Positions 4,290 to 15,067 are shown, counted from the first letter of the stretch. The stretch: 64,000 nucleotides of DNA from Chloroflexota bacterium (GCA_947479915.1 CANKAU010000001.1:89977-153976); one strand, 5' to 3'. The notes: generated by a model not told the origin, from the sequence alone. Translations and numbers: made by a program.

Positions 4290-6062
4290 CTACGCCTCCG
4301 GTTTACCCGCGTAGATTGCGCGGCTGTCCCGCTCATCCACCATGCGGTCGATGATCTGGAACACCGGCATCGCACCGAGGTCAGCGCCGGTCCCATCGCG
4401 GACCGCGGCCGCCTCGGCCTCCTCTTCGCGATCACCAACGACCAGCATGTACGGCACGCGCTGCAGCTGAGCGCGGCGGATCTTGGCGCCCATGCGCTCG
4501 TTCGACTCATCTACCTCGACGCGCAGGCCCTTCTCGCGCAGCATCGAGCGCACGCGGTGGGCGTAGTCGACGTGGCGGTCGGCGATCGGCACGACGACGG
4601 CCTGCACCGGTGCAAGCCACAGCGGGAAGTGCCCGGCAGTGTGCTCCACGTAGACGCCGATGAAGCGTTCGAGCGATCCGAGGATCGCGCGGTGCAGCAT
4701 CATCGGCGTGTGGTCCTCGCCGTCAGCGCCGACGTACTGCAGGCCGAAGCTGGTGGGCATCGCCTGGTCGATCTGGATCGTGGAGAGCTGCCACGATCGG
4801 CCGATCGCGTCGCGGACGTGGAACTCGACTTTCGGGCCGTAGAACGCGCCCTCGCCGGGGGCGATCTCGTACTCATAGCCCGCGCTGGTGAGCGCCTCGC
4901 CGAGGAGCTTCTCGGACGCATCCCATGCGGGGATCTCGCCGACGAACTTCTCCGGCCGCGTCGCGAGCTTCACGCGTGGCTCGCCGAGACCGAGGTCTGC
5001 GTAGACGCGGCGGCTCATCTCGAAGAACAGGTGCACCTCGCGCTCGAACTGCTCCGGGGTGCAGTAGATGTGCGCGTCGTCCTGCGAGAACGAGCGCACG
5101 CGAGTCATGCCATGCAGCACGCCGGATCGCTCGAAGCGGTGCAGGCGCGTGAACTCTGCGAGGCGCAGCGGGAGGTCGCGGTACGAGTAGTGACCGCTCT
5201 TGAAGAACCAGCAGTGGCCCGGGCAGTTCATGGGCTTGATTCCCATCTCGGACTCGTCCGCCTCGAACATGAACATGTCATCGCGGAAGTTCTGGTAGTG
5301 GCCGGAGATCTTCCACAGGTCGGCGGAGAACAGCTGCGGGGTGATCACCTCGTCGTAGCCGTACTCGCGGTAGAGCTCGCGCATGTAGTCGATCAGCGCG
5401 TGGTAGAGGATCGCGCCCTTCGGGTGGTAGAAGGGCGATCCCGGCGCGATCGAGTCGAGGTGGAACAGGTCCAGCTCCCGCCCGAGCCGGCGGTGGTCGC
5501 GCCTCTCGGCTTCCTCGCGCGTGACCTTGAACGCCTCAAGTTCCTCGTCGGTCGGGAACAGCAGGCCGTACACGCGCTGGAGCATCGCGTTCTTCTCGTC
5601 GCCTCGCCAGTACGCACCGGCGACGCGATCAAGGGTGAACGCGCCGAGCTGGCCGGTGGTCTCGGTGTGGCCGCCGCGGCACAGGTCCTGGAACTCGCCG
5701 TGGCGGAAGTAGCCCACGGTCTCGTCCTGGATGCCGTCAATCAGCTCGAGCTTGTACGGCTGATCCTTGAAGATTTCGCGCGCTTGCGCCTTCGGGATCT
5801 GTTCGCCGCGGATCGGCAGGTTGCGCTCCACCGAGACGCGCATCCGCGCCTCGAGCGCGCCGAGGTCGTCCGGCGTGAGCGGGCGCGGCAGGTCGAAGTC
5901 GTAGTAGAAGCCGTTCTCGACCGGTGGGCCGATGGCGTACTTCGCCTCCGGGAACATCTCCAGGATCGCCTCGGCCAGCACGTGGGCGGCCGAGTGCCGC
6001 TGGCGGAACAGGCGTTCCTCGGCGGGGAGCTGGTCGAACGGGGTCTCGTCGCTCATCGTCAT
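4290..6062 (-). CDS. thrS: threonine--tRNA ligase
   Basis: ThrRS catalytic and anticodon-binding domain motifs are present. The start is set at ATG ATG (MTMSDETP) with GAGAGGA 6 nt upstream. The listed ORF extends to 6119 but would run through the upstream terminator hairpin. Confidence 0.9.
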   Translation of the reverse strand: MTMSDETPFDQLPAEERLFRQRHSAAHVLAEAILEMFPEAKYAIGPPVENGFYYDFDLPRPLTPDDLGALEARMRVSVERNLPIRGEQIPKAQAREIFKDQPYKLELIDGIQDETVGYFRHGEFQDLCRGGHTETTGQLGAFTLDRVAGAYWRGDEKNAMLQRVYGLLFPTDEELEAFKVTREEAERRDHRRLGRELDLFHLDSIAPGSPFYHPKGAILYHALIDYMRELYREYGYDEVITPQLFSADLWKISGHYQNFRDDMFMFEADESEMGIKPMNCPGHCWFFKSGHYSYRDLPLRLAEFTRLHRFERSGVLHGMTRVRSFSQDDAHIYCTPEQFEREVHLFFEMSRRVYADLGLGEPRVKLATRPEKFVGEIPAWDASEKLLGEALTSAGYEYEIAPGEGAFYGPKVEFHVRDAIGRSWQLSTIQIDQAMPTSFGLQYVGADGEDHTPMMLHRAILGSLERFIGVYVEHTAGHFPLWLAPVQAVVVPIADRHVDYAHRVRSMLREKGLRVEVDESNERMGAKIRRAQLQRVPYMLVVGDREEEAEAAAVRDGTGADLGAMPVFQIIDRMVDERDSRAIYAGKPEA

Positions 6063-6103
6063 CAGTCCTCTCGCGGCGAAGGATTCGGTGTCCCGCGCCG
6101 GTA

Positions 6104-6420
6104 TCACAAACACAAGCAAACGCGCCGTTCGGCCATGCGGTGACAGTCCCGCAGGGACGAACGGCGCGTTCGTGGTTCCACCCGGCTTCCCTCGGCGCTC
6201 GCGGTTCCCTCATTGAGGACGCGCGCTGCCGAGGCTCCTGCACCCGTAACGAGGGTGTCGTCGCCGCGGGTTCGCTCGCGGGCTCGGGGGTGGTGTCGGT
6301 CGCGTGCGCGGCGCGGGGCTTGCAGCCTGGCCCCCCGAAGGTGGCCGCGACCCCGCTCTCTTGGTGCCGCGCGGGCGCGGGACGTGTCCCCGTCAGCGCT
6401 CATATGGACGTGCCCGCAGG
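6104..6420 (-). promoter_or_regulatory. predicted T-box riboswitch leader of thrS (T-box motif plus intrinsic terminator)
   Basis: The minus-strand RNA contains GGGUGGAACCACG (plus 6171-6183), one mismatch from the T-box consensus AGGGUGGNACCGCG. It overlaps the 5' arm of a hairpin (6121-6131 / 6158-6168) that is followed by UUUGCUUGUGUUUGUG, roughly 40 nt before the thrS start. Stem I and the specifier loop were not verified. Confidence 0.45.
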
Positions 6421-6544
6421 CACGGCAAATCGGTCTGTGTGCAGTGTACGCGCGGAGCGGGGTGTGGTGAACGGACGCCCTCGCGCGGCGCGGCACCCTC
6501 ATGACGAAGTCACGAGACGGGCGGTGCAGCCGAGGACGGAGGAA

Positions 6545-6622
6545 GTGGTGGGCGGTACTGGATTCGAACCAGTGACCTCAGCGATGTCAACGCTGCGCTC
6601 TAACCAACTGAGCTAACCACCC
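6545..6622 (-). tRNA. tRNA-Val (anticodon GAC)
   Basis: Manual fold: acceptor GGGTGGT/ACCGCCC, anticodon loop TTGACAT, T-arm ACTGG TTCGAAT CCAGT, CCA encoded. Confidence 0.8.
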
Positions 6623-14797: not shown

Positions 14798-15067
14798 GTG
14801 GTCGTGCTAGGCGGGGAGTTAGCGGTGCCCTGAACCCGCAATCCGCTTTAGCGGGGTTGAATGCCCGTCCGAGATCGATGTCTGAAGGGACTGCAAACGC
14901 CAGGCGGTGTTGAGAGCCTGGTCCTGTGCGGCAACGCCCGGCCAACCCCGTCAGGGCCGGAAGGCAGCAGCGGTACGTCGAACGCGTTGGGTGCCACGGG
15001 ATCGCCGGGTTTGAGCAGGCCAGCGGGCGCAAGCCGGCAGCGTCGAACAATGGCGGGGCACGACCAC
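14798..15067 (+). ncRNA. ffs: signal recognition particle RNA, long (Bacillus-type, Alu domain-containing) form
   Basis: The 5' part GTGCTAGGCGGGGAGTTAGCGGTGCCCTGAACCCGCAATCCGCTTTAGCGGGG closely matches the B. subtilis scRNA Alu domain. The domain IV motif GTCAGGGCCGGAAGGCAGCAGC is at 14950-14972. The terminal helix pairs GGTCGTGC (14800-07) with GCACGACC (15058-65). Confidence 0.75.

Follow-up and report, generated by a model that had tools for sequence, protein, structure and literature searches.

The threonine--tRNA ligase gene, thrS, is a classical target of T-box riboswitches in the Firmicutes, with thrS and tyrS of Bacillus subtilis as the archetype of the system. The mechanism of the family is well established, and its architecture is far from uniform: glycine T-boxes do without Stem II, and Stem II regions range from ~10 to 200 nt (PMC7583486). 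S-turns, too, are typical of the family and not universal, so that their absence does not exclude a leader from membership. In the actinobacterial translational ileS T-boxes of Mycobacterium tuberculosis and Nocardia farcinica, an ultrashort Stem I is combined with a long, S-turn-bearing Stem II and the Shine-Dalgarno sequence is sequestered (PMC7583486). Closer to the present organism, Wels et al. (2008, PMC2494555) described T-boxes upstream of ileS, trpE and a trpB-like gene in Dehalococcoides, which establishes the riboswitch in the Chloroflexi lineage; thrS was not among the Dehalococcoides targets in that 2008 survey, which comprised ileS and two trp genes. A literature search found no paper joining the T-box riboswitch with the Dehalococcoidia.

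Here we describe a leader upstream of thrS in a 64-kb stretch of Chloroflexota DNA (64,000 nucleotides, analysed whole and called the window below), shared with a clade of uncultured, GC-rich Dehalococcoidia MAGs, which is very probably a transcriptional T-box riboswitch specific for tRNA-Thr(GGU) and in control of thrS. In kind it is an ordinary T-box, slightly varied in its architecture. With the Firmicutes thrS T-boxes (for example control loci L051 and L147) it shares the order of elements, the regulated gene, an A as the variable base of the bulge and the opposition of a UGGAACC antiterminator to a terminator. The two nevertheless differ in composition (70-76% GC in the clade, ~35% in the controls) and in detail: the specifier is ACC here and ACU-A in the controls, at the same site; three covarying Watson-Crick pairs stand where the controls have the specifier S-turn (AGUA/GAA); Stem II is reduced to 7 bp and a CGAA loop, with no S-turn; 10 of 12 leaders carry a hairpin inserted in the distal loop, and a conserved hairpin lies 5' of Stem I; and the Rfam model RF00230 awards 16-26 bits here against 95-127 bits in the controls.

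Each of the other described groups resembles the leader in part. In the glyQS-type T-boxes (PMC7583486) most of the tRNA recognition falls to a long Stem I that carries the two distal T-loop motifs, and no Stem II S-turn clamps the codon-anticodon duplex, as would be the case here; but they lack the Stem II hairpin, the IIA/B pseudoknot and the F-box, all of which are present in this leader, and their specificity is for Gly and not Thr. The Dehalococcoides T-boxes belong to the same phylum, class and riboswitch family. The actinobacterial ileS T-boxes are GC-rich and have a IIA/B pseudoknot, as does our leader, with an F-box-like sequence that reads CCGUCA where CGUUA is found here; what sets this leader apart from them is its long Stem I, its minimal Stem II and its use of a terminator.

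The thrS locus and its relatives

The regulated gene and the signals that flank its leader are as follows.

4290-6056, minus strand: thrS (threonine--tRNA ligase), matched by TIGR00418 at 672.8 bits against a cutoff of 383.65
6054-6072, minus strand: Shine-Dalgarno sequence GAGAGGA (6072-6066) and start codon, from alignment with relatives
6409-6426, minus strand: hairpin GCCGUGCC-UGCG-GGCACG, 5' of Stem I and downstream of the predicted transcription start, from alignments
6443-6471, minus strand: predicted sigma-70-type promoter in a conserved block, with -35 TTCACC (6471-6466), a 17-nt spacer and -10 TACACT (6448-6443)

Translation of thrS most likely begins at the ATG at 6056-6054, which homologues favour. 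In the closest relatives (L161, L162 and L165) GAGAGGA is followed after 8-9 nt by a sole ATG that aligns with position 6056 of the window, L163 has GUGAGGA at the same spacing, and the N-terminus read from 6056, MSDETPFDQLP, matches MNEHDTPFDELP in L162. An in-frame ATG at 6062-6060 is possible, with a spacer of only 4 nt. The long TTG start at 6119 is disfavoured because the reading frame would begin inside the 3' arm of the terminator and cross its U-tract. The first-pass annotation had rejected this long start on the same ground, and was right to prefer a short one, although its own choice of 6062 gives way to the ATG six bases downstream.

Upstream of the leader, the TTCACC-N17-TACACT block (6471-6443) is kept in the window, L162, L163 and L165, reads TTCGCC at its -35 in L161, and has the -10 variants TACAAT and TACAGT in L168 and L164; a simple promoter scan made no call for it, and we regard it, from its conservation, as the putative promoter of the thrS leader. 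The hairpin that follows shows compensatory changes, to GCCGCGCC/GGCGCG in L164 and to CACGCC/GGCGUG in L165.

Searches with ThrS returned one Chloroflexi MAG (L001) at 71% identity from a species-level genome collection, everything else there being at most 55% identical, and nothing above 56% from a metagenome collection; the leader is absent from the thrS locus of L001. A large protein collection held many Dehalococcoidia ThrS sequences at 66-89% identity, and contig look-ups supplied 14 relative loci (11 non-redundant), which with the window make up the set of 12 leaders. The same ~300-nt leader lies directly upstream of thrS in all 14, and it moves with the gene, since in L168 and L169, where the gene neighbourhood is rearranged, it is still found upstream of thrS.

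In alignment A4, 90.1% of cells are paired under the antiterminator-state structure, a share that falls to 41-50% once partners are shifted by 1-3 columns, and compensatory changes occur at 13 pairs, where shuffles give 5.5 +/- 1.7 (0/500), figures that, like the permutation results given below, overstate independence because the 12 leaders are related. Column-wise pair counts on the MAFFT alignment have IIB, P2 and P3 out of register, and because of this misregistration per-sequence folds were added together with a register-free strand-swap test, in which the duplex energy that a 5' strand reaches with the 3' strand of its own leader is compared with those reached with the 3' strands of other leaders; its results are given as the number of permutations, of 20000, that do as well as the observed pairing. 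RNAalifold, given the raw alignment, returned the terminator state along with a long-range CCACCC/GGGUGG pairing; the latter was dropped because neither of its strands varies and it is incompatible with both Stem I and the antiterminator.

Structure of the leader

A complete T-box leader runs from 6401 to 6105 on the minus strand, upstream of thrS. Its elements, up to the antiterminator, are:

6282-6401, minus strand: Stem I (K-turn, specifier loop, two middle helices, AG box, helix P4 and distal loop), from constrained folds
6291-6294, minus strand: specifier ACC (Thr codon, 6294-6292) with its 3' purine A (6291), immediately above the CCCC strand at the base of the stem
6356-6361, minus strand: AG box AGAGAG in the distal bulge of Stem I, from conservation and the RF00230 alignment
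6320-6349, minus strand: distal loop, made up of an inserted hairpin (6349-6327) and, 3' of it, the GNUGNRA motif GCUGCAA (6326-6320), from alignment and folds
6264-6281, minus strand: Stem II, 7-bp hairpin CCGCGAG-CGAA-CCCGCGG, from alignment and RF00230
6241-6264, minus strand: Stem IIA/B pseudoknot with F-box CGUUA (6251-6247), from conservation and the RF00230 alignment; IIA pairs GCG (6264-6262) with CGU (6251-6249), G6264 being common to Stem II, and IIB pairs CACCC (6257-6253) with GGGUG (6245-6241)
6190-6234, minus strand: Stem III, CCUCGGC ... GCCGAGG closing an apical part that varies, just 5' of the antiterminator

The architecture of Stem I is identical in 12/12 leaders in per-sequence constrained folds. 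At its base, GC-GCUGAC-GGGG (6399-6388) lies opposite CCCC-CGA-GC (6290-6282), with both GA dinucleotides and both flanking helices invariant, including the basal GGGG/CCCC, and a 3-nt bulge that varies; from this arrangement a K-turn (GA motif) is predicted to be present. Above it the specifier sits in a 4x4 internal loop, 5' ACAC opposite 3' ACCA. The segment ACCACCCC, which holds the specifier ACC-A, is invariant across the 12 non-redundant leaders; the codon matches the amino acid of the gene that is regulated, and its third base is C, as the T-box literature leads one to expect (PMC7583486). The S-turn (AGUA/GAA) is absent above the specifier and Watson-Crick GUC/GAC pairs take its place, in a codon-adjacent 3-bp helix that covaries among the leaders (GUC/GAC, GCC/GGC, AUC/GAU).

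Further up Stem I, the middle helices covary (strand-swap test, 13/20000), with compensatory pairs in helices 3-5, and helix P4, between the AG box and the distal loop, is paired in 98.6% of cells. The AG box, which reads AGAGA, AGAAA or AGUGA, is kept in every leader and aligns to the AGAGA of RF00230. The GNUGNRA motif occurs as GCUGCAA, GCUGGAA, GUUGUGA, GCUGAGA and GCUGUAA, and one base shorter, as GCUGGA, in L173. The hairpin inserted before it is lineage-variable: it is found in 10/12 leaders, the exceptions being L170 and L174 with an ordinary loop of 11 nt. The K-turn, the ACC-A specifier, AGAGAG and GNUGNRA, each invariant or covarying in the 12 leaders, together bear out the proposal of the first-pass annotation that this is a T-box sensing tRNA-Thr, for which it had called for a Stem I, a Thr specifier and the distal motifs to be found.

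Stem II is paired in 98.8% of cells, with a single compensatory change (C-G to U-A, in L171), and has no S-turn, the S-turn segment being deleted in the RF00230 alignment. Of the pseudoknot sequences, CGUUA and GGCG are invariant, and CGUUA and IIA align to their counterparts in RF00230; IIA, of only 2-3 bp and invariant, therefore draws no support from covariation. IIB stays complementary through at least five sequence versions (CACCC/GGGUG, CGCCC/GGGCG, CGGCC/GGCCG, GCCG/CGGC and GCCC/GGGC), with a strand-swap result of 744/20000. Stem III is paired in 92.9% of cells, has 2 compensatory pairs and gives 9/20000 in the same test.

Two mutually exclusive structures upstream of thrS

The 3' part of the leader can form either of two structures.

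6154-6183, minus strand: antiterminator, with helix A1 (GGG/CCC), 7-nt bulge UGGAACC (6180-6174) and helix A2 (ACGAACG/CGUUCGU), from the local match to RF00230
6105-6172, minus strand: intrinsic terminator, with an outer stem of 15 bp (6172-6158 with 6131-6117) around the inner GUCCC-UGC-GGGAC, and tail UUUGCUUGUGUUUGUG; MFE -41.2 kcal/mol

The T-box sequence itself, GGGUGGAACCACG at 6183-6171, is the sole exact match to the degenerate pattern GGGTGGNACCRCG in the 64 kb. When one mismatch is allowed there are 4 matches against 2.2 expected in the window, so that the pattern is not enriched; the motif alone is not significant, and its weight rests on context and conservation. It had been described as one mismatch from the T-box consensus, but two positions separate it from the Rfam consensus GGGUGGUACCGCG, one of them the variable base that pairs with the discriminator and the other a common A/G alternative. 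A1 and the T-box bulge are invariant, and A2 covaries, with 3 compensatory pairs and no permutation of 20000 (0/20000) in the strand-swap test. The canonical antiterminator fold has a free energy of -8.6 kcal/mol.

The terminator, at -40.8 kcal/mol, is far more stable than 500 shuffles of its sequence (-20.4 +/- 3.0 kcal/mol, the best of them -31), and the fold of the 381-nt leader as a whole has z = -3.2. A 15-nt insertion in the window leader lengthens the terminator stem. The arms picked out by the first reading, 6168-6158 (CGCGCCGUUCG) and 6131-6121 (CGAACGGCGCG), do pair, in a helix that in fact extends to 15 pairs; the inner hairpin exists as well, although its loop had been given as GCA, a plus-strand reading, and is UGC in the RNA. 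The tail (6120-6105) has U at 10 of 16 positions, its U tract being broken by G and C. In 12/12 leaders the GC-rich competing hairpin is followed directly by a U-rich tail, with clean tracts of U5-U6 in L173 and L174.

The terminator draws in the whole of A2 as well as the CCC strand of A1, which makes it and the antiterminator mutually exclusive, and the competition between them that had been proposed for the leader holds good. The terminator, like A2, covaries in the clade at 0/20000, which indicates that both exclusive structures are under selection, the signature of a switch. The Shine-Dalgarno sequence GAGAGGA is found 33 nt past the U tract and belongs to neither alternative helix; this position, together with the U-rich tail after the competing helix in every leader, argues that control is exerted on transcription and not on translation.

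Covariance-model search and its controls

A scan with RF00230, the check that the first-pass annotation had advised for the leader, yields no match at the gathering score of 93 bits anywhere in the window. The annotation had added that a leader left unscored by the covariance model would be a plain attenuator or terminator; taken literally, that rule would have wrongly dismissed the T-box call. A permissive search of 6000-6560 gave a local match of 16 bits (E = 0.29) to model positions 188-215, which correspond to the antiterminator GGG-UGGAACC-ACGAACG...CGUUCGU-CCC. In the same 6000-6560 interval neither the gathering threshold nor the looser cutoff of E <= 10 brought up any other Rfam leader, the Thr operon leader included; the microRNA and sRNA families that a permissive search placed on the terminator are artefacts of its generic hairpin shape.

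The relatives score 23-26 bits, again well below the gathering score of 93. The alignment for L161 nevertheless runs end to end (model positions 1-219, 26.4 bits; E = 3e-4 in a 286-nt search and 0.067 in a 64-kb search), with 28.4 bits deducted by RF00230 as composition bias, and its sites agree with our hand map at the K-turn, AG box, codon, Stem II, IIA with CGUUA, Stem III and T-box. The ACC of L161 falls in the codon slot of the model (GAAa-uuc-A in the model, UAAC-ACC-A in the leader). As a control, the model awarded 95-127 bits to 12 low-GC thrS leaders, where the specifier context is GAA-A-ACU-A. Eight other loci with GGGUGGAACC upstream of thrS, several of them GC-rich, are also below the RF00230 threshold (L016, from Chloroflexus, and L064, L089, L123, L130, L141, L151 and L154). 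We read the failure of the model here as a loss of sensitivity on sequence of 70+% GC, because 11 non-redundant relatives share all the elements, along with compensatory changes in Stem I, IIB, Stem III, the antiterminator and the terminator.

Alternative explanations

Might the hairpin be no more than an intrinsic terminator or attenuator that senses no tRNA, lying beside a T-box-like 13-mer that arose by chance? Such an element could stop read-through from a tRNA-Val gene, or act via a protein or a leader peptide, and the surroundings lend the idea some colour: a tRNA-Val(GAC) gene (6546-6622) lies upstream on the same minus strand as thrS, 75 nt from the predicted -35, and a 132-aa ORF (6104-6502, minus strand) overlaps the leader. 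The sub-threshold RF00230 score and the unremarkable frequency of the 13-mer pattern at one mismatch point the same way. Against this, some 300 nt are conserved in the pattern of blocks and compensatory changes that belongs to structured RNA, and single-base indels among close relatives within the range of the 132-aa ORF break any frame; the ORF is spurious, and 6105-6401 is regulatory RNA, not coding sequence. Moreover, all T-box elements are present in canonical order, no Thr-leader or other attenuator family of Rfam was matched, and the antiterminator, for which a plain terminator has no need, covaries (0/20000). We consider a plain terminator highly improbable.

Two further readings would keep the regulation of thrS and change its means. 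A translational T-box that sequesters the Shine-Dalgarno sequence, as the actinobacterial ileS T-boxes do, would suit a GC-rich genome, this class being known from high-GC Actinobacteria (PMC7583486), and would suit the imperfect U tract; but the Shine-Dalgarno sequence at 6072-6066 is part of neither helix, the hairpin and its U-rich tail recur in every leader, and the long Stem I with its distal T-loop motifs contrasts with the short one of that class, all of which makes translational control very unlikely. Less credible still is an operator bound by ThrRS itself, after the manner of the E. coli thrS leader, whose autoregulation depends on tRNA mimicry (PMC9976931). The leader does contain hairpins rich in ACC and GGU; its conserved elements, however, are those that bind tRNA (specifier, double T-loop and UGGN bulge) and not anticodon-arm mimics adjacent to the Shine-Dalgarno sequence, around which, that sequence itself excepted, conservation is poor.

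Predicted mechanism and cognate tRNA

By analogy with characterised members of the family, we infer the following course of events. Transcription would start at ~6436, as placed by the putative TTCACC-N17-TACACT promoter, and Stem I (6401-6282) would then capture tRNA-Thr, with ACC at 6294-6292 pairing with the anticodon and the platform formed by the AG box and distal loop stacking on the tRNA elbow. An uncharged tRNA, through its free 3' end (UCCA by prediction), would pair with UGGA in the T-box bulge and so stabilise an otherwise weak antiterminator (6183-6154, about -9 kcal/mol), allowing RNA polymerase to continue into thrS. With charged tRNA, or with none, the terminator (6172-6117, about -41 kcal/mol) would be expected to form and transcription to stop. 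For thrS in this uncultured Dehalococcoidia lineage, the prediction is induction when the charging of tRNA-Thr falls.

The UGGA bulge predicts a U73 discriminator on the cognate tRNA-Thr. According to TBDB, the variable base of the bulge forms a Watson-Crick pair with the discriminator in most T-boxes. U73 is the minority state in bacterial tRNA-Thr, with 28,854 genes of 160,271, against 131,288 with A73 (PMC6097841). Neither the 64-kb window nor any of the 174 loci contains a tRNA-Thr gene. UGGA was found in 38/38 of the thrS-linked T-box motifs fetched, which span several phyla; this lends indirect support to the U discriminator that the first-pass annotation had proposed, and makes it a reasonable prediction.

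Implications

The want of both S-turns is a modest variation on the known design, and could help to define which T-box elements are dispensable. Taken with the retained IIA/B pseudoknot and the extra distal T-loop hairpin, it raises the possibility, finely poised but to our minds slightly doubtful, that the clade is a distinct architectural subclass of transcriptional T-boxes. Were that so, the codon-anticodon duplex would have to be presented or stabilised otherwise than in the solved structures, for instance by A-minor contacts from the conserved CGAA loop, and catalogues that rely on RF00230 would systematically lack GC-rich T-boxes of the kind.

Whatever the rank of the clade, the leader is a clear false negative of RF00230 at its 93-bit gathering score in high-GC sequence, and surveys that depend on it probably give too low a count of T-boxes for GC-rich Chloroflexi and comparable groups. 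An nhmmer profile made from the leaders of the clade matches the window at the leader site only, at 158.7 bits, and also recovers T-boxes that RF00230 certifies, at L104 (E = 1e-4) and L076.

Retention and detection of the leader

The predicted threonine T-box leader upstream of thrS is retained in L173 and L174, relatives at 66-73% ThrS identity, and is absent from the thrS locus of L001 (1400-1704), the Chloroflexi MAG that is the closest species-level genome relative (ThrS 71% identity) and in which tRNA-Val is inverted. At least one sublineage has thus lost the leader or had it replaced. In the GC-rich leader of the relative L161 (2175-2429), correction for composition bias costs 28.4 bits of the score against RF00230, the Rfam T-box covariance model, and eight further thrS leaders with GGGUGGAACC fall under its 93-bit gathering score (L016 from Chloroflexus, L064, L089, L123, L130, L141, L151 and L154). 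Together, this loss and these sub-threshold leaders suggest that RF00230 systematically under-detects T-boxes, GC-rich ones at least.

Structural elaborations

Features overlapping or upstream of the leader:

6104-6502, minus strand: 132-aa ATG ORF spanning the whole leader
6409-6426, minus strand: conserved hairpin GCCGUGCC-UGCG-GGCACG, downstream of the predicted promoter and ahead of Stem I
6546-6622, minus strand, as the leader: tRNA-Val(GAC), followed after 75 nt by the predicted -35 of the leader

The hairpin at 6409-6426, which shows compensatory changes in the relatives L164 and L165, has no counterpart in the canonical T-box; it may conceivably act as a 5'-end stabiliser. At the other end of the leader, the terminator carries a 15-nt insertion, CUGUCACCGCAUGGC (6132-6146, minus strand), found in none of the relatives, and this insertion, along with neighbouring arm bases, accompanies an outer stem of 15 bp in the window as against some 7 bp in the relatives.

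Between these elements, CCACCC (6288-6293, minus strand), overlapping the ACC specifier codon, is complementary to GGGUGG (6178-6183) of the T-box sequence. RNAalifold predicts that the two pair, both strands being invariant and hence devoid of covariation signal. Such a pairing could serve as an off-state trap, or could be a by-product of the ACC-A-CCCC context.

For the 132-aa ORF, single-base indels between close relatives and an RNA-type pattern of conservation indicate that it is spurious.

Genomic neighbourhood and encoded protein

Among some 174 thrS loci retrieved, 60, from many phyla, have tRNA-Val(GAC) adjacent to thrS; in the close relatives, tRNA-Lys(CUU) and tRNA-Leu(UAG) lie beside tRNA-Val(GAC) in divergent orientation. 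The window ThrS itself (4290-6056, minus strand) is about 590 aa long. Precomputed Pfam annotation gives it the domains tRNA_SAD, tRNA-synt_2b and HGTP_anticodon; it lacks an N-terminal TGS domain, as do its Dehalococcoidia homologues. Elsewhere in the window, a bacterial large SRP RNA is encoded at 14802-15063 on the plus strand (RF01854, 144.7 bits).
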